DNA of 36,473 bases from a virus. Lineage: Duplodnaviria > Caudoviricetes. Below, piece by piece: positions 788 to 30,188 of the stretch. Every line of letters begins with the position of its first letter. Positions within the stretch are counted from its first letter, which is position 1. Location: positions 1 through 36,473 of the IMG/VR virus record IMGVR_UViG_3300012346_000047; one strand, written 5' to 3'. The notes beneath the pieces are model-generated. The model searched no databases. It saw nothing but the letters and a program-made list of their open reading frames with translations, and was not told the DNA's origin. A program made the translations under genes and the position numbers.

Positions 788-1585
788 CTATTGTTTCCAA
801 TGGTTAGCGAAAGCCTTGAGCGGGTAAAAGACTAAGGAGTTCCTGTATCCGCCTTCTATTGTGGGATGGATTGGTGTCACTCCATGCACATTACGCCACG
901 CAGGATACACCAACATTGAGTTATCCCTGCTGTCAACTGTTGCGTCATAGTCAGGTACGGTCGTATTGCCGCCTCTTGCGTTCTTTTTCTTGGCGATGAT
1001 CACATTGACACAGCCTTCAAGATTGGCGGCATCGCGGTGGAATGGCGCGGAGATATTGAAATTGCTAATGCTTGATGTGAACAGTTCACCAAAGCGGAAC
1101 TCAGGCGGCACTTCCTTCTCAATGATTTGCTTCTGCTGTGCATAAAGTTCAGGGGAAATATCCTGTATAAGCTTCTCTGATTCTTTGCAGAGCAAGAGCA
1201 TGGCCTTGACGAATGTATTGGCAGATTTGACCTGATGTACGCTAGAGATCGAGGGATACGGCCGCTTCATATGTGGCTTTGGTGGTATTGACCCGAGGAT
1301 TGTGCTGTACTGGCGAATCACCTGATACTGGTTCTTGCCGTTGGCATCCTGTCCCATTGGCTTCTTCCTGTCCATAAATGACTTTGGCACTCTGTCAGAT
1401 AGGAACTCGGCATTGGCAACATCCGCCAATTGTTTGATGCGGCCAGTCATCTCCTTGATGTAGAAGCCGATCACCTTGCCATCAGCCATGAAGATTGTGT
1501 CCTCTGTGACATTTGGCTCAATATCCCCGCATACATCCCCAATTTTCACGCTGTGTGCAATTTGCTTTAGCTCAACATAGTTCAT
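788..1585 (-). CDS. TET/JBP-family 2-oxoglutarate/Fe(II) 5-methylpyrimidine dioxygenase
   Basis: FTSSISNFN..H183-R-D185..N, GG, H234-GVTPI, R248-NSLVFY: the HxD...H...RxS triad with flanks typical of phage TET/JBP proteins. Confidence 0.88.
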   Translation of the reverse strand: MNYVELKQIAHSVKIGDVCGDIEPNVTEDTIFMADGKVIGFYIKEMTGRIKQLADVANAEFLSDRVPKSFMDRKKPMGQDANGKNQYQVIRQYSTILGSIPPKPHMKRPYPSISSVHQVKSANTFVKAMLLLCKESEKLIQDISPELYAQQKQIIEKEVPPEFRFGELFTSSISNFNISAPFHRDAANLEGCVNVIIAKKKNARGGNTTVPDYDATVDSRDNSMLVYPAWRNVHGVTPIHPTIEGGYRNSLVFYPLKAFANHWKQ

Positions 1586-2310
1586 AACTGTTCCTTCACA
1601 ACATTCTTCACCATTTGTATCTCTGTGTATTGGGATTTCCTGTTCGCATTTATAGAAAAAATATCAGGATACAGCTTGCACAGCATTAAAGATGCTTGGC
1701 GTTCTAGGCTTGCTCGGTCTGCTATGTCTTGCATCCCGCCTTGATTCTTGTAATTGTTTGTCAGGCAGGAAATGAAATTGAAACGCGCAATATTACCCAT
1801 GTATTTGTAATACTTAACGCTTCTTTCGTAATCTGTTTTTGTTTTCAGTTGGCACAAAACCCGATGATCTTTGGTCGATCGGAAGCCAAACAAGTTCGCC
1901 ACGATGTATGTCGCGCCAATGTCGATCGTCTTGCTCATGAAAAATTTGTTTGAGCTTGGATAGACACCGAAAGAATTGATTTTTTTATTGTTGCAGTAGT
2001 TGATGATGAAAGAGAACAGTTTTTGCAGATTCTTTGTCATCAGTGATTGGATTTGTTTTATGTCATCTTCAATGACAATGACAAAGACTCCAACATCGAA
2101 ATAATTTTGGATGTAATTGAATTTGTCAGTTGCGTTATCTGTTTCGCACAGCACTAGGTTGTAATCAGGGCAAACTTCCATGTACTTGGACATATCTTCC
2201 TCATCGCTGATGAACAAATAAATGTCTTTCTTGTCAAACTCTGTGAGTAAACTCAAAGTCAGTTTGTTGATCGTGTCTGATCGCCTATGCGTTGGTATTG
2301 CAATCTTCAT
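1582..2310 (-). CDS. TET-associated GT-A glycosyltransferase (TAGT / GREB1-C-like)
   Basis: MKIAIPTHRR start, VIVIEDD motif, KTDYERS, NQGGMQ; adjacent to TET. Start reassigned to ATG 2310 (ATGA overlap). Confidence 0.8.
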   Translation of the reverse strand: MKIAIPTHRRSDTINKLTLSLLTEFDKKDIYLFISDEEDMSKYMEVCPDYNLVLCETDNATDKFNYIQNYFDVGVFVIVIEDDIKQIQSLMTKNLQKLFSFIINYCNNKKINSFGVYPSSNKFFMSKTIDIGATYIVANLFGFRSTKDHRVLCQLKTKTDYERSVKYYKYMGNIARFNFISCLTNNYKNQGGMQDIADRASLERQASLMLCKLYPDIFSINANRKSQYTEIQMVKNVVKEQL

Positions 2311-3245
2311 ATCAAATCTGCCATGTTGTTTACGATAGAGATATATTTGGCGTTGTATTTGCAAACGCGCAAGCCTTCAGCGATTGCAAATTTGATTACA
2401 TCTTTGCCGTAGTGATCAGCGATCTTGGCGGCCTCTGCATAGTTACGCTCGTAGGCCAACAAACTAAAAAACGCTTTTCCCGCATCTGTCATGTAACTGC
2501 CGAACACGCCTTTGTAGTTCGGATCAATACAGAATATTTTGCTATCTTGGACAAGAATATTTGTTGTTGACAGATCGCCATGAAAGAAAGATGGTTGATG
2601 CTCTTCTAAAGACGCAACAATTCTCTTCACATCTTGCGTTTCATACTCAATTGTTGGAATATTTCGCGTATAGGAATCAAATAGCGAATTTTCAATTGAT
2701 TTATTCTTGTATGACTCAATCAAATCAATGATCTGATGCGCTGTAGGCTTCTGATGGCCGTTTATTCGCTCAAGAATGATCATTTCATCGTTGCAGAACA
2801 ATATTTTTGGCGTCTGAACAATATTTTCAGACATCTTGTACCAACGAAATTCAAGTTCTGCGTTTTTTGTGTGCTTGATAACTGTGCTGTCTGTGAAAAT
2901 CAGTTTATTGCGTGTGAATGGACTCAGAATGCTTGAAAAATCAGCATCTTGGCTCACAGTCATGTCATCAATGTAAATTGCTCCGTATTCTTTGTTGAAA
3001 GAAATGCAATCGTGCGGTACAGCATGGATGTTTAGCCAAGTTTGAATATCTTTGTGATATTTTTCAATCTTTTGTTTCTCTGTCAGGCCAAAGCGCGAGC
3101 CACGCGCTGTAACAATTTTGATTGTTGGATTTATTGTGCTTTTCAAATCCTGCAATCGTTTGATCAGCGCAAGATTTGGCACTCTGTCCATGATGCGGCT
3201 GTGTCCGATTGCCAATGTTCCATCAAAATCAACAACAACGATCAT
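2307..3245 (-). CDS. Fusion of HAD phosphatase (capsule-biosynthesis type) and APH/choline-kinase-like phosphotransferase
   Basis: N-half: VVDFDGTL, VTARG, K, YIDD (HAD motifs). C-half: HGDLSTTNIL..IDPN (kinase catalytic loop and metal site). Confidence 0.85.
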   Translation of the reverse strand: MIVVVDFDGTLAIGHSRIMDRVPNLALIKRLQDLKSTINPTIKIVTARGSRFGLTEKQKIEKYHKDIQTWLNIHAVPHDCISFNKEYGAIYIDDMTVSQDADFSSILSPFTRNKLIFTDSTVIKHTKNAELEFRWYKMSENIVQTPKILFCNDEMIILERINGHQKPTAHQIIDLIESYKNKSIENSLFDSYTRNIPTIEYETQDVKRIVASLEEHQPSFFHGDLSTTNILVQDSKIFCIDPNYKGVFGSYMTDAGKAFFSLLAYERNYAEAAKIADHYGKDVIKFAIAEGLRVCKYNAKYISIVNNMADLI

Positions 3246-3763
3246 AGAGCCTCAAAATAATCTTCCACATCACCTAATTTGATGAATGTGTTTTCTTGGA
3301 TAACTTTCGCCCCAATCATTCCAGATGCCAAGCTGTTGTCATCTTTCATTGAGTCCAATAAAGCCGCCATTGATTTGACAAAATATATGCCACTACATTT
3401 GTCTTTGGATATGCTATTTTTCTCATCAACGGCCATCAAGCGGCCATCTTCAATCAAAATTGAGCCGTATTTTGGTTTGTCGCTTCTGAAATAAAACAAA
3501 GTATCTTCTTCAAAATTCAGATTCGGCACTCCAAATGGAATGATGTCGCAATCAACAATTAAACAATCTTTTTCATTGGCAATTTCGGCAAGCGTTTCTC
3601 TTCTGCTGTTCGTTTTTTTGTCGCCTAGCAAGTTCGCATACGGAAAAATGCTGAATATATGTTGAATGATGCGTTTGTCTTTGTAATAAATAAATTGTTT
3701 ATCAACAGGACTGATGTTTTTCATCCTTGTCCCTGATCCGCCAATCGTTACAAAAACTTTCAT
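3242..3763 (-). CDS. Sugar-phosphate nucleotidyltransferase (NTP_transferase family)
   Basis: GGSGTRM..SPVDKQ signature, IVDCD, EK, SGIYF, LGDVED. Start reassigned to ATG 3763 (ATGA overlap). Confidence 0.85.
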   Translation of the reverse strand: MKVFVTIGGSGTRMKNISPVDKQFIYYKDKRIIQHIFSIFPYANLLGDKKTNSRRETLAEIANEKDCLIVDCDIIPFGVPNLNFEEDTLFYFRSDKPKYGSILIEDGRLMAVDEKNSISKDKCSGIYFVKSMAALLDSMKDDNSLASGMIGAKVIQENTFIKLGDVEDYFEAL

Positions 3764-4365
3764 ACTTTGGATTTTTGTTTCCGCAGGAAATCCAAGATCA
3801 TGTAGCCAATATAAGCGTTCTGTCCGCGCCAATATTTAACTAATTCTTGCGCCTCTTCGTAGTGTTCAGGCTCAAATTCAATCTGAATGGCTTTTTTCAC
3901 GCCATCAGCCATGTCTTGAATTTTCTCGTCAACATCCTCGTCATCTAGGACAGAATAATCAATTGCGCTTTTGACCAGTTCAGATTCATCAAAACCGAGC
4001 AATTCAATTTCAAAATCACAATTTTTCAATTCCTCAATTTCCAAACCGAGGATATCCATGTCCCATCCCGCGTTCAGGGCAAGTTTGTTGTCAGCAATGA
4101 CATAAGCCTTCTTCTGCGTTGCTGTGAGATGGGAAATCTCAATTGTTGGCACAGTATCCAATTTGAGCAAACGAGCCGCCATCACACGGCCATGCCCTGC
4201 CAAGATGCCATTCTCACCATCCAAGAGGACAGGATTGGTGAAACCAAACTCCCTGATACTTGCGGCCAATTGCGCGACTTGTGACTCGGAGTGTGTGCGG
4301 CTGTTCAGAGCGTATGGAATAAGCTCCTCAGTCGCCTTATATTTGATTGCCAATTTATTTGTCAT
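3760..4365 (-). CDS. ParB/sulfiredoxin N-terminal domain protein without a methyltransferase domain
   Basis: LIPYALNSRTHS..SIREFGFTNPVL..AGHGRVMAA..YVIADNKLA..WD; short acidic/helical tail. Confidence 0.9.
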   Translation of the reverse strand: MTNKLAIKYKATEELIPYALNSRTHSESQVAQLAASIREFGFTNPVLLDGENGILAGHGRVMAARLLKLDTVPTIEISHLTATQKKAYVIADNKLALNAGWDMDILGLEIEELKNCDFEIELLGFDESELVKSAIDYSVLDDEDVDEKIQDMADGVKKAIQIEFEPEHYEEAQELVKYWRGQNAYIGYMILDFLRKQKSKV

Positions 4366-4389
4366 GTTCACCTTCAGATTAGATAAGGA

Positions 4390-4418
4390 ATCTTAGCATA
4401 CAGCTTATATATTCCCAA
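4390..4418 (-). promoter_or_regulatory. Putative sigma70 promoter for the DNA-modification operon
   Basis: TTGGGA-17 nt-TAAGAT with extended -10 TG, about 25 nt upstream of the ParB start. Confidence 0.55.
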
Positions 4419-4468
4419 ATAGGCCACCCCCTCAAATTTTTTTGGCGTAGCGTTAACCCCGCCCCCCC

Positions 4469-4816
4469 TCATCGTTCTTTGTCAAAATAATTCTGCAAAT
4501 CAGGAACAGGAATGTCATGCGGCCAAAGTTGTAGCATCACCAAACGCTGTACCGTCTTGCGATGCGCCTTCTGCCAAAGAATTTGTCGCTCTTCTTTGGA
4601 TAAGTTGCTACCCTGATCAATTTCCATGTGGCATCTGTAACAAAGACTGGCGATCAGGTTGTCATCCGCCTTGATAGAACGCCCCTTGCCTCCGCCAAAG
4701 TTTGTATGTGCGGCAACGACTGTGCCATCATCAGCACCACAATGCTGACAGGCGATTTCCCTCGCGTTGCGTAGCAATGCAGTACTTCTGATGTATTTAT
4801 GTTTTGGGAATCTCAT
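4469..4816 (-). CDS. Zn-binding HNH-like nuclease (YbcO/DUF1364-like)
   Basis: ACQHCG..TVVAAH..GKGRSIKADD..LCYRCHMEID. Confidence 0.7.
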   Translation of the reverse strand: MRFPKHKYIRSTALLRNAREIACQHCGADDGTVVAAHTNFGGGKGRSIKADDNLIASLCYRCHMEIDQGSNLSKEERQILWQKAHRKTVQRLVMLQLWPHDIPVPDLQNYFDKER

Positions 4817-5271
4817 CTGATTTCAACAACTCTGTCGTTCTTTGATTTGATGTGGTTTTTGGTTTTCTGAATCATTTTTTCAAACTCGCATCTTGGGATA
4901 CTTGCCTGTTGCAGATCGGCATATTCCAATAAATCCCTGATCGCTTGAATTCCAAGACCACTCAGACCCATCTTCTTGCTCTGTTCGTAGCGTATCGCAG
5001 ACTCATGTAATGCGGATTGCGCTTTTTGGCAAGTCTCCAAGGCTTCGTGTCCTATGCCATTCGTGGCCATCATCTCGGTCAGATTCAAAACATCCACCAA
5101 AGTCCGCCAATCTTGCACAGTACCCATGCCGCGAATCATTGCGTCCAATGCCGTAAGCTCAGACAAACGCAATTTGTCCAAGTCTCTGCGGTCAATCATT
5201 GCCACGCCTGTTATCGCGTAATCAATTGGATTGACCAAACTCCAAATTTTTCTTTTAGTTTTTTTTCGCAT
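4813..5271 (-). CDS. Hypothetical helical protein
   Basis: ORF coupled to the downstream gene by an ATGA overlap; start reassigned to MRKKTKRK. Confidence 0.7.
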   Translation of the reverse strand: MRKKTKRKIWSLVNPIDYAITGVAMIDRRDLDKLRLSELTALDAMIRGMGTVQDWRTLVDVLNLTEMMATNGIGHEALETCQKAQSALHESAIRYEQSKKMGLSGLGIQAIRDLLEYADLQQASIPRCEFEKMIQKTKNHIKSKNDRVVEIR

Positions 5272-5278
5272 GATCTGA

Positions 5279-5437
5279 TTATTTTTTTTTGGATGCTTGA
5301 ACCATTCCCGCAACAGTGAAACCAAAAAGAAGAAAAGCGAACCGACCAAACTCAGTCCACTCAGATGGGTCAAATTGCCAATTGATAAAAGTTGCAAAAA
5401 TATATGCAACGCAAAATGAGATTAAAAGCGTTTTCAT
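5279..5437 (-). CDS. Small two-TM membrane protein (52 aa; not in track)
   Basis: MKTLLISFCVAYIFATFINWQFDPSEWTEFGRFAFLLFGFTVAGMVQASKKK; ATGA overlap with the upstream gene. Confidence 0.65.
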   Translation of the reverse strand: MKTLLISFCVAYIFATFINWQFDPSEWTEFGRFAFLLFGFTVAGMVQASKKK

Positions 5438-5604
5438 TTCATTGGCCTCCATTGTTTGAGTGGCTGAATTTTTTTGGTTGAATAAAAATGAATCAGAAAA
5501 TCAATTGTCTGCGCATAGGTCAATTCAATGCCCATGTCTGATTGAATCTGTGCGCGAATAGCGTCAATGTTTTTTGTAATTGGGATTGTGATTCTTTTAG
5601 ACAT
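5434..5604 (-). CDS. Small hypothetical protein, possibly a ribbon-helix-helix-like DNA binder
   Basis: MSKRITIPITKNIDAIRAQIQSDMGIELTYAQTIDFLIHFY; strand-helix-helix pattern; overlaps its neighbours. Confidence 0.55.
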   Translation of the reverse strand: MSKRITIPITKNIDAIRAQIQSDMGIELTYAQTIDFLIHFYSTKKIQPLKQWRPMK

Positions 5605-5815
5605 TCTGCAATCCATCCATGTACAAATCTGCCCCTGCTTTGGCAAGCTCATCTAAAAATGCTTCTGTAAAACAACCACCGATTTCTGTGTCCCCGAGTT
5701 TGATAGAAACAATGCTTCTATCGAAAGTTGAATCTTCATCTCTGTCAAATTCAACTTCAACATAAACTAACTCTCTACCTTCACCAATCCTTGTGATGTA
5801 TTTGAAGTTGTACAT
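5597..5815 (-). CDS. Small acidic hypothetical protein
   Basis: MYNFKYITR...; AGGGG RBS; tightly packed. Confidence 0.6.
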   Translation of the reverse strand: MYNFKYITRIGEGRELVYVEVEFDRDEDSTFDRSIVSIKLGDTEIGGCFTEAFLDELAKAGADLYMDGLQNV

Positions 5816-5817
5816 CT

Positions 5818-6234
5818 TTATTCCCCTTTTGTTGAAAAAATTATTCCGTTGGTTGCACTCCATGCTTCCAACCATTCTATAAATTCGCTTGCATCCTCTT
5901 TTGAGAATCTGCGCGACTGCATCCCAAGTTGAACAATTCGTTCTCCGTCTAAACTTTGAACGAGCCGCCCAATCTTGCGATCTGTTTCATTTGCCCATTG
6001 ATCAATCAACAGACGCTTGAAATCTTCGGAACTCCATCGGCTTCCGATGTGCTGTGCTTGCTTGGAAATTTCGCCAATCATCGCGTGATATTTTTCTTCT
6101 TGGTCGCGGCTTTTTTTCTCAGGCTTAATTTCAATTGAAAGTTTCCTTCCCGCTTGCAAAGCTGTTTTCACCTTAGGCCATAAAGTTTGCATCAAAGATG
6201 TTGCTTGCTCTGCTGATTCAAGGTGATAAATCAT
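5818..6234 (-). CDS. ninB: NinB/Orf-family recombination protein
   Basis: KSRDQEEKYHAMIGEISKQ..WSSEDFKRLL..SRRFSKEDASEFIEWLEAW..NGIIFS. Confidence 0.85.
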   Translation of the reverse strand: MIYHLESAEQATSLMQTLWPKVKTALQAGRKLSIEIKPEKKSRDQEEKYHAMIGEISKQAQHIGSRWSSEDFKRLLIDQWANETDRKIGRLVQSLDGERIVQLGMQSRRFSKEDASEFIEWLEAWSATNGIIFSTKGE

Positions 6235-6497
6235 TTTGCCACTCCAATCATTCTCAATGCGGCTTCCACGCCATCAACTCTACAAACTGTGCCACCAGTC
6301 CAATTCAAAAAGAAATCGCTCTGCAAATCTGTCAAACGCTTTTTTGAATTTGTTTTTATTTCCATCAAGAATGAATGGCCGTTGTAACCAACAAGCAAAT
6401 CAACAGGCAAACCGATAATCCAAACATACGCGCCTACATCGCGCAATGCTTTGACAATCTCCGCCTGATTTGCGTCCACTCTTGCGGCATATCTCAT
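6231..6497 (-). CDS. PD-(D/E)XK nuclease (VRR-NUC / resolvase-like)
   Basis: AARVDANQAEIVKALR..PVDLLVGY..LMEIK..LTDLQ. Confidence 0.8.
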   Translation of the reverse strand: MRYAARVDANQAEIVKALRDVGAYVWIIGLPVDLLVGYNGHSFLMEIKTNSKKRLTDLQSDFFLNWTGGTVCRVDGVEAALRMIGVAK

Positions 6498-6670
6498 TTT
6501 TCTTTTCTCGCAATAATGACACCGATACATTCTTTGACGGCTTCATTGTGTATGACAGCGTCCCGCGATGTTGGCATCTGACTAGTTGTAACAAAGCATC
6601 TGAGCATTTCAATAACGCATTCTTCGCGTTCTTTTAGCAACAATGCATCAATGTCAATTTCTTGTGGCAT
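6494..6670 (-). CDS. Hypothetical protein (58 aa; not in track)
   Basis: MPQEIDIDALLLKEREECVIEMLRCF..IIARKEK; fills the gap and has an ATGA overlap downstream. Confidence 0.6.
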   Translation of the reverse strand: MPQEIDIDALLLKEREECVIEMLRCFVTTSQMPTSRDAVIHNEAVKECIGVIIARKEK

Positions 6671-6860
6671 TGTTTTTCCTTTGTATGTTCATTCTTCTGC
6701 GCAAATCATCAGCCGCTGATTGCCCACGCTTTCGCGCTATGTCCGACAATGTTTTCAGCCACCACTCTAAGGCTTCGCCCTTGCCTTCTTCCAGTTGCTT
6801 CTTCCTGTACCTTGCAATCCACTCCCGCGCTTCGCTGTCTTTGAGGTGTTCCTTGTCCAT
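6654..6860 (-). CDS. Hypothetical protein
   Basis: MDKEHLKDSEAREWIAR..KRGQSAADDLRRRM. Confidence 0.65.
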   Translation of the reverse strand: MDKEHLKDSEAREWIARYRKKQLEEGKGEALEWWLKTLSDIARKRGQSAADDLRRRMNIQRKNNATRN

Positions 6861-6963
6861 CAATATCACCTGTTGCTTCTAATGCTTGATTGATAATTTT
6901 TTCAGGATAACAAGTTCCATCAGCGACCCTGTCTAATATCCGCATGGCATCAAAATAATTCAT
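6709..6963 (-). CDS. Hypothetical protein
   Basis: MNYFDAMRILDRVADG..ALEATGD; the 3' half overlaps the next gene by about 150 nt and may be non-functional read-through. Confidence 0.5.
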   Translation of the reverse strand: MNYFDAMRILDRVADGTCYPEKIINQALEATGDIDGQGTPQRQRSAGVDCKVQEEATGRRQGRSLRVVAENIVGHSAKAWAISG

Positions 6964-6964
6964 T

Positions 6965-7195
6965 TCAAAATTCATCCTTGTCTTCATACCATTGCGCAAC
7001 AGTTTTCGGCTTCAGGTCAGGCAATGATGTAAACGCTTTTTTTTGTGGGCGGCTGTTTTGCCATTGATGATGTGAGCATTTCGGCTTCTCGCCATCACAA
7101 TGAACTGCCCATCTGCGGCCACAGCCATCAACAGAGCAGTAAATTGAAAATTCAAATTCTTCTTTGCGTTTTGATTCAGGTTTAGCGAAGCTCAT
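6965..7195 (-). CDS. Small Cys/His-rich (Zn-finger-like) protein
   Basis: CSVDGC..CDGEKPKCSHH; ATGA overlap at the start. Confidence 0.65.
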   Translation of the reverse strand: MSFAKPESKRKEEFEFSIYCSVDGCGRRWAVHCDGEKPKCSHHQWQNSRPQKKAFTSLPDLKPKTVAQWYEDKDEF

Positions 7196-7386
7196 ACTTT
7201 GGCCTTTTGTGTCATTCGGTTTTGTTTCAAATTTTTGCCTGTTATTTTTTTGTTCCAACAGACTTGGCAAATCCATTTTGCACCCATCTCAATACCACCT
7301 TCAGGCGGCTTAGATGTTTCACATTTGGTGCAGAGTTTGAATTTATTTGTTGAAAAATTCGAGCCAATATCAATTTGCGGCATCAT
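7192..7386 (-). CDS. Small Zn-ribbon protein
   Basis: CTKC...CQVC. Confidence 0.7.
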   Translation of the reverse strand: MMPQIDIGSNFSTNKFKLCTKCETSKPPEGGIEMGAKWICQVCWNKKITGKNLKQNRMTQKAKV

Positions 7387-7486
7387 TTTTTTTATCCTCT
7401 ATTTTTGTTTCTGCTAATGCTTTTAAAAAAGGAATAAGCAATGCAAAAAATACTCCTATCAACATATATCCGATAGCTTCAGTCAT
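7370..7486 (-). CDS. Single-TM micropeptide (38 aa; not in track)
   Basis: GGAGG RBS; MTEAIGYMLIGVFFALLIPFLKALAETKIEDKKNDAAN. Confidence 0.6.
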   Translation of the reverse strand: MTEAIGYMLIGVFFALLIPFLKALAETKIEDKKNDAAN

Positions 7487-7634
7487 ATAACCTCCACAAA
7501 AAACCAATTCCAAAAATCATCAACCATGCTGATGGATCAGTTGGCGGGAATCCTGTCATTGTCAAACTACCAATCAATACGCAAGATATTCCGAAAACCA
7601 ATAGCGCCAATCTAGCTAATTCGTATTTGGTCAT
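7479..7634 (-). CDS. Two-TM small protein (51 aa; not in track)
   Basis: GAGG RBS; MTKYELARLALLVFGISCVLIGSLTMTGFPPTDPSAWLMIFGIGFLWRLYD. Confidence 0.6.
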   Translation of the reverse strand: MTKYELARLALLVFGISCVLIGSLTMTGFPPTDPSAWLMIFGIGFLWRLYD

Positions 7635-7804
7635 TTTTTCACCTCAGTGACACATGTAGTGTGCTTCCAAATACCAGACTCAGCCCAAACATTTTTGTCT
7701 AGTTGGTGGTAAACCTTCCCATCAACACATTTTAGGTCTGAGCACCCAGTTAAAAGCAATATGCTAAAAGCCAATGCAAGGCGTAACGCAATATCTTTAT
7801 CCAT
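7631..7804 (-). CDS. Small lipoprotein (57 aa; not in track)
   Basis: GGAG RBS; MDKDIALRLALAFSILLLTGC (lipobox LTGC) then SDLKCVDGKVY..TTCVTEVKK. Confidence 0.7.
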   Translation of the reverse strand: MDKDIALRLALAFSILLLTGCSDLKCVDGKVYHQLDKNVWAESGIWKHTTCVTEVKK

Positions 7805-8537
7805 TGTTTTCTCCAGTTATGCCGTGTGCGGCTTCGATGGCTCTGGCAAAGTCAAGTAAGTTGGCGCTGAAGTAAATGACTCCTTTATTTGATACTGTCA
7901 AACTGGAAACAACATCATTGATCTCCTCATCCGTCAGCGGCTTGCGCTTTGGCTCCCATCCCAATGCAGTTGCTATGCGCTTAGCGGCTGACTCGTCAAT
8001 GACTGGCTGTGCGGGTGGGGCGGGCTTGCGTGTCGGTATGGTGATTTTTTGAAGCAAATAATCCGCTTCTTCAAGCGACATAACATCATCGCTAAAAGCG
8101 CCCCACATATGACGGCGCAAGTTCCACACTTCACGATAGCCTCGGGGATTCCACCTTGCTATTGCGTAGTGGCCCTGTACTCCGTCGGCTCTGTCGCTAA
8201 GGTATGGCGCCCACGCCGCAGGCTCATCCTTTGCTTCTTGCTTTGGTGGGGTGGTGTTCCTTTGTGCAACTTCTTCCACCACACACACCGCCTCATCTAA
8301 CCTAATCAGCGCATCACCCGAATCGTTCTCTTTAATCATTTCGCTGTCATACAGCGCGTGCAAGTCGTCAATGATTTCTTCTGACCACGCCACAGGTTCA
8401 CCCTTTGCTTCTTTCGCGGCTTTAATAGCGTTGATGGCTTCTCGCTGAAAGCATGGGTTGTATTCAGCATTACATCTGTTTCCGCAAACGTCTTCTAACG
8501 CCTTCTGCGCTAAGTCAAGTGCTTCGTCTTTAGTCAT
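7797..8537 (-). CDS. Modular hypothetical protein (EPVAW / TTPP / LTDEE modules)
   Basis: EAKGEPVAW, TTPPKQEAKDEPAAW, KPLTDEEI, FARAIEAAHGI; GGAG RBS. Confidence 0.8.
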   Translation of the reverse strand: MTKDEALDLAQKALEDVCGNRCNAEYNPCFQREAINAIKAAKEAKGEPVAWSEEIIDDLHALYDSEMIKENDSGDALIRLDEAVCVVEEVAQRNTTPPKQEAKDEPAAWAPYLSDRADGVQGHYAIARWNPRGYREVWNLRRHMWGAFSDDVMSLEEADYLLQKITIPTRKPAPPAQPVIDESAAKRIATALGWEPKRKPLTDEEINDVVSSLTVSNKGVIYFSANLLDFARAIEAAHGITGENNG

Positions 8538-8914
8538 GTGTTCTTCTCCTTGAGTTTTGCTTCTAGGGCTTTTAAAAGCGGACTTTTATTGGCATCTTGT
8601 ATTTCGTACTTGTTTCCATTGCTATCCTGCATCCATATTACAAGCGGAGATTTCGCTGCTTTACATTTAGGGCAAGTTTGGTCTACGCAACAAGAAATGT
8701 AATAGTCCAACCCCAACTCTCTGGAATTTTCTGATTTCTTATTTAAAGCATTCTGTCTTGTTTGCCATTCAATTTCTTGCAATCTAGCAATTGCAAAACG
8801 AGCATCTTGCATTGCAAAGTGGTCGTGTTTGATTGGCCAATATCTATTTTCATTTTGAGCAACTAATTCTTTCAACGCATTTAATGCAAGATGTAGCGCA
8901 GTATCTTTATCCAT
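8534..8914 (-). CDS. Modular hypothetical protein
   Basis: Start reassigned to MDKDTALHLAL (GGAG RBS); ends LEAKLKEKNT. Confidence 0.75.
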   Translation of the reverse strand: MDKDTALHLALNALKELVAQNENRYWPIKHDHFAMQDARFAIARLQEIEWQTRQNALNKKSENSRELGLDYYISCCVDQTCPKCKAAKSPLVIWMQDSNGNKYEIQDANKSPLLKALEAKLKEKNT

Positions 8915-9311
8915 TGTTTCTCTCCTTAAGATACGCCTCAATAGTTTCAGCAAAAACACAAGCATCCCGCTCTGGATTTAGTGTTTGTGGCAATTCACCC
9001 CAGATTTTGCTACGCTCCTCATTTGTCAGCCCTACCCATGTGCGCTTTGGTGGGGTGGTGTAACGAGATGTACCTGCGTTAGAAATTCTGTTGGTGTTTA
9101 TCGACAGTACAACGCCTTGCCCCTCGAAGTAACCAGACACACTCGCCATAGGCTCACCCTTACACTTATCTTGTTCGCTTTGATACCCAACAAGCATCCT
9201 GTTAAACGTTTCCTTTGATGTGTCTGGTGCATCGTTCCAAAAGTGCCACAAGCCTTTACCTTCTTTGAACAATCGTGCACCTAATTGCTCTGGTGTTTCT
9301 TCTTTAGTCAT
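8907..9311 (-). CDS. Modular hypothetical protein
   Basis: MTKEE.., KGEPMA, TTPPKRTWVGLTNEE, FAETIEAYLKERNNG. Confidence 0.75.
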   Translation of the reverse strand: MTKEETPEQLGARLFKEGKGLWHFWNDAPDTSKETFNRMLVGYQSEQDKCKGEPMASVSGYFEGQGVVLSINTNRISNAGTSRYTTPPKRTWVGLTNEERSKIWGELPQTLNPERDACVFAETIEAYLKERNNG

Positions 9312-28880: not shown

Positions 28881-29494
28881 TACGCGCCCATATTGATGCG
28901 GTGAGGCGTCATCAGATGAATCATGCCGTATGGGATTGGTGTAACTAAGTTACCAATATTGATGGCTTCGCGATTTTCATAAAGTTCACCAATGTACAAG
29001 AGCATGGCTTGCTTCAAGGCTTCAGGCATTGGGTAATCATTTGGACTTCCAACTGTGAATCCTGCGGCAAAGCGAACGATGACAGCATTTGGAATTTGTT
29101 TAGCTTGCGGCCAAATGGTCACAGGATAAATCTTCGCAGGATTGCTATATGAATCAAAGATGTATTGATTTGCATTGAGCGTCTGCGTTGTGCCGTTTGT
29201 GTCTGTGTATGTGATGCTTGTGATTGAATTGATTGGATATGTTCCCAACTCAATTTCGTTTGCAGGGAATTCATCAAGAGCCATGGCGTATGTTGTTGGT
29301 GCAACGGTCAACTCTGTGTATGCCTCAACTGCCTCACGCGCTGTCTTAATCAATGATGTGACTAGAGCATCGTCAGGATGGCTTGGCGGTGAGCCAACGG
29401 CATCAAGACGCAAATGCAAACGCGCTGTCGCCAATGTGATCGGCTCAGTCGTTACAACTGCTGTGCGCTTAATCTTCCGAACTAATTGAGTCAT
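28880..29494 (-). CDS. Head-tail connector (HK97 gp6 / phiE125 gp8-like)
   Basis: EPITLATARLHLRLD..DDALV..LKQAMLLYIGELYENRE. Confidence 0.9.
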   Translation of the reverse strand: MTQLVRKIKRTAVVTTEPITLATARLHLRLDAVGSPPSHPDDALVTSLIKTAREAVEAYTELTVAPTTYAMALDEFPANEIELGTYPINSITSITYTDTNGTTQTLNANQYIFDSYSNPAKIYPVTIWPQAKQIPNAVIVRFAAGFTVGSPNDYPMPEALKQAMLLYIGELYENREAINIGNLVTPIPYGMIHLMTPHRINMGA

Positions 29495-30188
29495 TTATTT
29501 TTCCCTCTGGCTTATAAACCAAAGCATCATCACCAATCCACGATTTCAAAATTCTACCGCCAACATCCTTAGTTCCACGGAAATTTTTTGAATGACCAAC
29601 GCCAATTCCTAACCTACCTTCAATCCCTTTGATGCCTATCACCCTTTGGCCGCTGAACAAATGATTATTGCTGTGAGCTTGCCATAGCGTGTGGTCAATA
29701 AATTGAATCGTATCTCTGCATACAGACTTGAATGTTTCCAAGGCTTGTCCGCGAATAGCAGTAGAACATAAACTGCTATGCAAGGTGTTTTCCATCTGCC
29801 TATAAGATTTCTGAGTCAGGTTGTAATAGCGAGCATTTGCTTCGCCAATCAATTCAGCTTTCTCAAATTTCTTATCTATCGTTTCTAGCCAATCAGCCGC
29901 GTACCAATCGTCATCCTCAATAAAGACAACACGCTCGTCACCGCTGATTACATTTATACCCGCACGAAGATTACGCGCTTGCGTATTCATGCCTTTTTGC
30001 CAGTATGGAGTAGGCCGGATAACTTCAAGAGTCCAATTGTTTTTGCTGAATGTGATTGGCTGTGCAATCTCACCATCATCAACAATAATCCAACGAACCT
30101 TTCCTCTGTATGTTTGCCTTGCCATCCACATCTCGCAGATAGCCCACGCCTTCGGTCTTGCGCCTGTTGCGGTCAAAAGGGTCAACAT
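29469..30188 (-). CDS. GT-A fold glycosyltransferase in the head module
   Basis: LLTATGARP..WIIVDDG..FIEDDDWY..D..LW. Confidence 0.8.
   Translation of the reverse strand: MLTLLTATGARPKAWAICEMWMARQTYRGKVRWIIVDDGEIAQPITFSKNNWTLEVIRPTPYWQKGMNTQARNLRAGINVISGDERVVFIEDDDWYAADWLETIDKKFEKAELIGEANARYYNLTQKSYRQMENTLHSSLCSTAIRGQALETFKSVCRDTIQFIDHTLWQAHSNNHLFSGQRVIGIKGIEGRLGIGVGHSKNFRGTKDVGGRILKSWIGDDALVYKPEGKINDSISSED

Follow-up and report, generated by a model that had tools for sequence, protein, structure and literature searches.

In trypanosomes, base J is made by thymine hydroxylation (JBP1/2) followed by a GT-A transferase (JGT), and its sugar is glucose, taken from UDP-glucose. On contig 53, described by Pyle et al. 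(bioRxiv 10.1101/2023.12.21.572611), a HAD-APH fusion, a cytidylyltransferase and a GT-B glycosyltransferase are reported to be all essential for mono-/di-heptosyl-5-methylcytosine in E. coli, the acceptor 5-hydroxymethylcytosine (5hmC) being formed by a C5-methyltransferase together with TET. Phage oxygenases acting on thymine (T-dioxygenases) and their activation by ParB were established by O'Toole et al. (PMC13229309); the sugar steps further downstream were not characterised there. AfhE and AfhF, which have homologues in RB69 and DLP3, are reported to make UDP-arabinofuranose, with AfhF of HY126 acting as a D-arabinose 1,5-diphosphate phosphatase (PMC13326640). In P. multocida, mutation of bcbE or bcbG removes the fructose side chains of the capsule, and BcbF is a predicted participant (PMC13552107). 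Here we compare with these systems a five-gene operon at positions 788-4365 of the genome of a small aquatic phage (Caudoviricetes, IMG/VR record IMGVR_UViG_3300012346_000047). We refer to the whole stretch of 36,473 nucleotides that was analysed as the window.

We consider it probable that the five genes form a post-replicative pathway converting thymine to 5-hydroxymethyluracil and capping it with a non-glucose sugar from a phage-made nucleoside diphosphate (NDP) donor. Every reaction in it is predicted from the genes, their motifs, folds and linkage, and from the absence of a C5-methyltransferase and an isomerase. The block is real, intact and coherent. Its parts and the kind of system are known; what is new is how the parts are combined, with a likely thymine target, a GT-A transferase, a predicted self-made donor and a TET subclade apart from the characterised ones. 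An earlier annotation made from the DNA letters alone (the first-pass annotation) had described five linked genes with four ATGA junctions, and this is what we found: all five open reading frames (ORFs) lie on the minus strand, and each junction is ATGA.

3760-4365, minus strand: ParB-like gene, 201 aa
3760-3763, minus strand: ATGA stop/start overlap of the ParB and nucleotidyltransferase genes, read directly in the sequence
3242-3763, minus strand: nucleotidyltransferase gene, 173 aa
2307-3245, minus strand: HAD+kinase fusion gene, 312 aa
1582-2310, minus strand: TET-associated glycosyltransferase (TAGT) gene, 242 aa
788-1585, minus strand: TET/JBP oxygenase gene, 265 aa
3242-3245, 2307-2310 and 1582-1585, minus strand: the other ATGA overlaps, read directly in the sequence

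The five family assignments made at first pass were upheld by profile and structure searches, with the catalytic motifs intact. Recurrence of this gene set in 13 of the 37 sequence groups of HAD-kinase loci that we collected shows that the block goes beyond chance.

In the predicted pathway, the kinase would take a host sugar omega-phosphate and phosphorylate it at the anomeric carbon, the HAD phosphatase would take off the distal phosphate, and the nucleotidyltransferase would make the NDP-sugar. Some thymines of the phage DNA would be hydroxylated to 5-hydroxymethyluracil by the TET oxygenase, for which ParB is the likely activator, and the TAGT would move the sugar onto them to give a base J analogue. 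The likely purpose would be to shield the DNA from host nucleases, and the mark may be installed around packaging; the protection from restriction or CRISPR put forward at first pass is hypothetical. The base J pathway is alike in its thymine hydroxylation followed by a GT-A transferase; it differs in that the dedicated donor pathway of the window implies another sugar than glucose.

The ParB-like protein (ParB domain at the N-terminus, acidic linker, short C-terminal domain) matches phrog_15396/620 at E = 1e-52 and PF02195 at E = 1e-4, below the cut-off. By analogy with the ParB activation of phage T-dioxygenases (PMC13229309), it is likely the activator of the oxygenase. The TET/JBP protein matches PF12851 at E = 2.5e-8 (33.7 bits against a cut-off of 34.9, 1.2 bits under), and its H183-x-D185, H234 iron triad and 2-oxoglutarate arginine R248 are invariant in 15 aligned sequences. 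A sequence search against solved structures gave nothing significant for this protein. It shares 49% identity with a Prochlorococcus phage MED4-184 protein and falls into a MED4-184-like subclade; the gene that separates ParB from TET in MED4-184 shows no alignment to the TAGT. Its predicted activity, again by analogy, is likely the formation of 5-hydroxymethyluracil in DNA. The clade C1 T-dioxygenases of O'Toole et al. (PMC13229309) share with the window a ParB beside TET/JBP, the lack of a C5-methyltransferase, and tailoring genes and terminase nearby.

The TAGT matches PF20691 at E = 7e-7 (29.8 bits, above the cut-off of 27.5), and a sequence search against solved structures again returned nothing significant. 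Residues R9, E81-D82-D83, K158, D160-Y161 and G191-G192 are invariant in 15 aligned sequences. Where characterised GT-A DNA transferases read EDY/F, the TAGT reads KTDY, with T or N replacing the E of EDY (motif definition from Pyle et al., bioRxiv 10.1101/2023.12.21.572611).

The fusion protein consists of a HAD phosphatase domain (residues 1-105, EcbF-BcbF/AfhF type) and an APH/choline-kinase-type kinase domain (residues ~110-312), with a structure model of pLDDT 94. HAD residues D6-x-D8, T46, K85 and D93-D94 and kinase residues K124, E132, H222-G-D224 and D241 are invariant in 50 aligned sequences. The HAD domain matches TIGR01689 at E = 2e-8, with 34 bits far below the cut-off of 162; RB69 gp51 likewise falls under it (49.5 bits). 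It also matches PDB 1xpj (V. cholerae) by profile (E = 1e-11), and structure comparison (VIA) gave 1xpj at Z 12.6 and HY126 AfhF (9iqw) at Z 11.4 (root-mean-square deviation 3.3, 106 aligned). For the kinase domain, RIO1/APH matches by sequence are weak, and the APH/choline-kinase fold is assigned by structure (VIA: LicA Z 15.3, APH ~15). The nucleotidyltransferase has no Pfam match and no match in a search against cultured phages. Its model (pLDDT 92) indicates a minimal sugar-phosphate enzyme of the RmlA/LicC (SpsA) fold, with RmlA found by Foldseek at E = 1e-10 and LicC (Z 16.6), RmlA (16.4) and V. cholerae 4evw (16.4) tied in VIA; weak NCBIfam matches point to IspD and ribitol-5-P cytidylyltransferase. 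G9-x-G11-x-R13, K22 and D71-x-D73 are invariant in 31 aligned sequences.

The series of kinase, phosphatase and nucleotidyltransferase had been likened at first pass to ADP/GDP-heptose synthesis (HldE/GmhB; HddA/GmhB/HddC). As an analogy of logic this stands; the nearest families are an APH/choline-kinase-like kinase and an EcbF-BcbF/AfhF-like phosphatase. The HldE and HddA heptose pathways use a PfkB- or GHMP-type kinase together with a GmhB-type phosphatase, and we rejected membership in either, since the window's kinase has an HGD...N...D motif and the APH/choline-kinase fold. Likeness of the nucleotidyltransferase to HddC is weak (E = 0.011).

Pairwise profile comparisons to RB69 gp51, gp52 and gp53 were weak as well (E = 0.003, 0.001 and 0.013). 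A wider profile connected the HAD domain to gp51 at E = 4e-25 and the kinase to gp52 at E = 1e-14, with gp53 reaching just E = 0.02. With narrow profiles, HADs of bacterial polysaccharide clusters were found at E = 1e-13 to 1e-11 versus 0.14 for gp51, and the corresponding bacterial nucleotidyltransferases at E = 2e-6 to 2e-4 versus 0.02 for gp53. The RB69/DLP3/HY126 route resembles the window in its APH-type kinase, 1xpj-type HAD and RmlA/LicC-type nucleotidyltransferase. As described in PMC13326640, it differs in that its nucleotidyltransferase is fused to the kinase and that its phages carry a gene for an arabinose-5-P isomerase; there, GT-B transferases act on pre-replicative 5-hydroxycytosine (5hoC). 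The 5hoC synthase of AfhE/AfhF systems is of the thymidylate synthase type, and no thymidylate synthase was found among the 49 other window ORFs scanned. The EcbF-BcbF capsule modules (P. multocida BcbE/F/G; PMC13552107) are alike in the TIGR01689 match of the HAD, and the same HAD/kinase/nucleotidyltransferase trio occurs in polysaccharide clusters of E. coli and Aeromonas; they differ in that the acceptor is capsule and not DNA, and the TIGR01689 score of the window is far under the cut-off. Capsule clusters and E. coli O20/O137 have homologous trios. Clusters for bacterial capsule and O-antigen with the trio lie at L244 6172-8844, L245 5854-8566 and L243 8004-10747, where the nucleotidyltransferase is annotated as glycosyltransferase family 2 (GT2). 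A short-pattern search for the HAD-kinase in 185,579 prokaryote genomes gave one match, on a 4.9 kb contig of a metagenome-assembled genome; these patterns miss distant forms, which occur in bacteria. Contig 53 is alike in its TET-dependent DNA glycosylation and in having a HAD-APH fusion and a nucleotidyltransferase beside TET and a glycosyltransferase; compared by description, it has a GT-B and a C5-methyltransferase, in contrast to the GT-A TAGT, the lack of a methyltransferase and the ParB of the window.

We ran the neighbourhood survey that the first-pass annotation had proposed, and TET, TAGT and donor genes indeed recur together. HAD-kinase loci were collected from viral and metagenome contigs (63 loci, forming 37 groups at 90% identity); for TET, the best 80 of 565 confirmed loci were used, from a scan that covered 23 of 64 parts. 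The nucleotidyltransferase accompanies the HAD-kinase in all 30 groups with at least 700 bases upstream, and both TAGT and TET are present in 10 of the 28 groups with at least 2 kb downstream (13/37 overall). Within the clade of the window's TAGT, the HAD-kinase lies upstream in 15 of 16 loci (six of them near-copies), the 16th locus being cut off. Two loci, L022 and L034, keep the trio (46-56% identity) beside a different TET (24-29%), and in L165 the TAGT is kept and the donor genes are replaced by a distant fusion of all three activities. Pairwise-identity correlations over 12 loci were 0.87 for nucleotidyltransferase-TAGT, 0.71 for HAD-kinase-TAGT, 0.69 for TAGT-TET and 0.45 for HAD-kinase-TET; these values are descriptive, the pairs not being independent.

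L165, 6139-8004: nucleotidyltransferase-HAD-kinase triple fusion, 621 aa, between ParB and a TAGT 67% identical to that of the window
G002 (L239), 6551-9144: ParB, phosphatase/cytidylyltransferase fusion and TAGT in the same slot

A ParB gene precedes TET in 77 of the 80 closest loci. What stands between the two is exchangeable, and the trio is one of several fillings of this slot: 22 loci hold FkbM, 17 amino acid:DNA transferase sets, 14 an unclassified GT-A-like gene, 14 no gene at all, 3 another TAGT, 2 the window-type trio (both from the group to which the window belongs) and 5 other genes. Near-complete sister phage G001 (L238) has no cassette, no HAD-kinase and no TET, with its slot fully sequenced; together with the slot content of sister phage G002, this indicates that the cassette is accessory. 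The proposal that the phage makes its own activated donor is likely right, as the donor genes travel with the TAGT and occupy the slot of other base-tailoring enzymes; it has precedent in contig 53 and RB69/HY126. Among the contigs reported in PMC13229309, APH occurs in 0.3% and HAD in 0.2-0.6%, and APH and HAD are found together in less than 1%.

A similar set of enzymes is found in a cultured virus. Synechococcus phage S-CBWM1 (L235, NC_048106.1) encodes TET, TAGT, HAD, nucleotidyltransferase and an APH-type kinase in a row (3729-7921), the TET being annotated as an SNF2 repair protein. Its kinase is among the closest named relatives of the window kinase (wide profile, E = 6e-38); its TAGT and TET are distant from those of the window (23-27% identity), and no ParB is annotated beside them. 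Our literature search found no title on DNA modification of S-CBWM1.

The modified base is likely thymine, because no C5-methyltransferase is encoded: PF00145 was absent from the window genome, the complete relative G006 and S-CBWM1, with a control matching in 9 of 14 genomes. Further, 17 of the 80 close TETs pair with amino acid:DNA transferase sets, which, with kinase and GATase, are described as thymine-hypermodification machinery (PMC13229309).

Several observations weigh against the proposed pathway. Of four motifs of the window TET, none was found in the tested T-dioxygenase set (supplement of PMC13229309), and by eye the sequences listed there look distant from it. It also lacks the C-terminal extension reported for ParB-dependent enzymes, ending ~10 residues past the last conserved strand; the TETs of L022, L034 and L043 carry that extension. 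For both reasons, specificity for T and dependence on ParB are extrapolations in its case. A gene resembling a C5-methyltransferase precedes ParB in ~5 of the 80 TET loci (assigned by scanning in two of them and by cluster in the others). No TET is present anywhere in the 94%-complete record of G002, whose slot joins ParB to a histidine-phosphatase/cytidylyltransferase fusion and a TAGT, so that a TAGT can exist without an oxygenase. In 18 of the 28 groups that have 2 kb or more of downstream sequence, the donor pair occurs without TET or TAGT, surrounded by glycan genes (GT2, GT8, GT10, GT11, GT29, methyltransferases and a DUF7796-like family); the nucleotidyltransferase/HAD-kinase pair is thus a general, mostly viral donor module. 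The ranking of sugars given below rests on distant homology (20-35% identity).

Taken with the fact that tested phage T-dioxygenases oxidise 5-methylcytosine in vitro too (PMC13229309), the position of the window's TET outside the tested set and the C5-methyltransferase-like genes near some relatives would suit an oxygenase that acts on 5-methylcytosine from a host methyltransferase, giving glycosyl-5hmC at few sites as on contig 53. We regard this as improbable, since three cassette-bearing genomes lack a C5-methyltransferase, close TETs pair with amino acid:DNA transferase sets, and only ~6% of the 5mYOX contigs in PMC13229309 are reported to carry a C5-methyltransferase. The glycan-associated donor pairs raise another question, namely whether the home-made NDP-sugar feeds a different glycan, e.g., through virion protein glycosylation by the GT2 encoded at 29469-30188, where it is flanked by capsid and head-tail connector genes, with the TAGT drawing on a donor of the host. 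The HAD-kinase tree, which needs 3 changes between DNA and glycan contexts (with long outgroups and unsure placement), fits such a use. Yet the near-complete sister phages G001 and G002, each with a fully sequenced slot, both retain this GT2 (85% and 84%) without HAD-kinase and TET, making it an unlikely destination of the donor; moreover, the TAGT clade holds its donor genes in all loci but the cut-off one, and the translational coupling is to the TAGT. We therefore consider this diversion of the donor highly improbable.

We give hardly any credence to a chemistry in which kinase and nucleotidyltransferase, acting as LicA/LicC or TarI do, would yield a CDP-polyol or CDP-amino alcohol for transfer as a phosphodiester and not as a glycoside. 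LicA and LicC do head the VIA rows and the weak NCBIfam matches point the same way, but these rows are tied with APH and RmlA, and the DLP3/RB69 arabinose enzymes are reported to match LicC best as well (PMC13326640). A LicA/LicC route also needs no phosphatase, and the partner here is a GT-A with JGT-type motifs. As to purpose, the cassette lies just upstream of HNH and terminase genes in the window phage and most relatives, and the tested enzymes modify at most 25-35% of T; a regulatory role is raised by the authors (PMC13229309). A partial, sequence-specific signal for packaging or gene control instead of a nuclease shield is a minority option that we nevertheless take seriously; against it, G001, which has no cassette, carries an N6/N4 methyltransferase two genes away, and the slot content varies freely, as expected of an accessory defence trait.

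Returning to the thymine pathway with a phage-made donor, we asked which sugar it might carry. The reported lack of an isomerase was confirmed: neither SIS nor SIS_2 matched in the window genome, G006 or S-CBWM1 (controls: SIS in 14/14 genomes, SIS_2 in 9/14), and RB69 gp55 (arabinose-5-P isomerase), searched against all collected loci, matched itself alone. The first-pass annotation had named a pentose, heptose or polyol phosphate as source; a ketose phosphate (fructose-6-P, sedoheptulose-7-P) is a further candidate missing from that list. It is favoured because it needs no isomerase and is present in any host, because HAD and nucleotidyltransferase are closer to bacterial polysaccharide enzymes than to the RB69 arabinose enzymes, and because the EcbF-BcbF family name ties to the capsule fructose of P. 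multocida. Given the pathway, sequence relationships make a ketofuranose (fructose or sedoheptulose) our tentative first choice, at slightly less than an even chance; a pentose such as D-arabinofuranose would be rather unlikely, a manno-heptose a little more so, and any other sugar improbable. In our own interpretation, the 449 mass reported for contig 53 would fit sedoheptulose as well as manno-heptose. That all parts hold together, i.e., a ketose (fructofuranose/sedoheptulose) on 5-hydroxymethyluracil as a ketoside base J analogue, made via a TET subclade apart from the characterised ones and a portable viral NDP-sugar module that phage glycan clusters share and that is also present in S-CBWM1, we offer as a speculative and rather doubtful combination.

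The modified base had been suggested to be undescribed. This is probably so: our searches turned up no paper describing a glycosyl-hydroxymethyluracil whose sugar is not glucose and which comes from a TET-TAGT cluster equipped with donor genes, although subscription journals and supplements may contain one. The base would be built from known parts, and the likely acceptor, thymine, had been left unnamed. If the pathway is true, a sugar-on-thymine base with a phage-made donor would join the short list of DNA hypermodifications, and the ParB-TET slot would let small phages exchange their DNA chemistry by swapping a cassette. Arabinosyl DNA and heptosyl DNA depend on this three-enzyme donor module, as capsule fructose probably does, and naming its substrate here would help to assign a bacterial pathway of unestablished donor. 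Since S-CBWM1 is in culture, the prediction is measurable directly on native virion DNA.

The other slot fillings deserve a description. The gene found most often between ParB and a TET of this subclade encodes an FkbM-type methyltransferase (L082 3620-4309 and 21 other TET loci; L010 5282-5983), which suggests methoxymethyl-uracil; the cultured MED4-184 seems to belong to this type. Slot genes without a Pfam match are found at L112 5177-6001 (cluster k8, 14 loci) and L103 5120-6001 (k47, 2 loci), the k8 gene having GT-A-like R...DD...DDY...GG motifs by eye. In G001 (L238), the N6/N4 DNA methyltransferase gene lies at 8312-9004, upstream of the empty slot. Where TET is absent, the commonest neighbour of the donor pair is a family with weak DUF7796 likeness (L025 5693-6454 and ~20 loci, cluster c3), which may be the transferase matching the pair. 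In Agathobaculum phage AB434P2 (L011, 769-5582), a nucleotide kinase, a HAD-kinase fusion, an HxGH-type cytidylyltransferase and a thymidylate-synthase homologue are clustered; this is a pre-replicative counterpart in a cultured gut phage.

The virus record is 99% complete, and comparison with the complete relative G005 showed that the two ends of the window join within ~50 bases. Across this join, downstream of the operon, a sigma-70 region 4-like gene is followed by an HNH nuclease gene and the terminase genes. The sigma-70 region 4-like gene (409-780) is kept in sister phages and possibly encodes a late regulator. Elsewhere in the window are the genes for an HK97-type head and a tape measure protein, as well as recombination genes of the ERF/YqaJ kind, and the head-module GT2, conserved at 77-98% in close relatives, possibly serves virion glycosylation. 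The GC content of the trio between ParB and TET is 37-39% versus 44-48% for ParB and TET, which fits insertion as one block. A scan for promoters and terminators gave no more of either than shuffled sequence would (9 vs. 10.3 and 1 vs. 4.8). A search of sequencing runs returned 20 rows from 8 studies, each with under half of the window words and none of them RNA among the matches listed. Finally, the TA dinucleotide is strongly depleted across the whole window, at 0.52 of expected.

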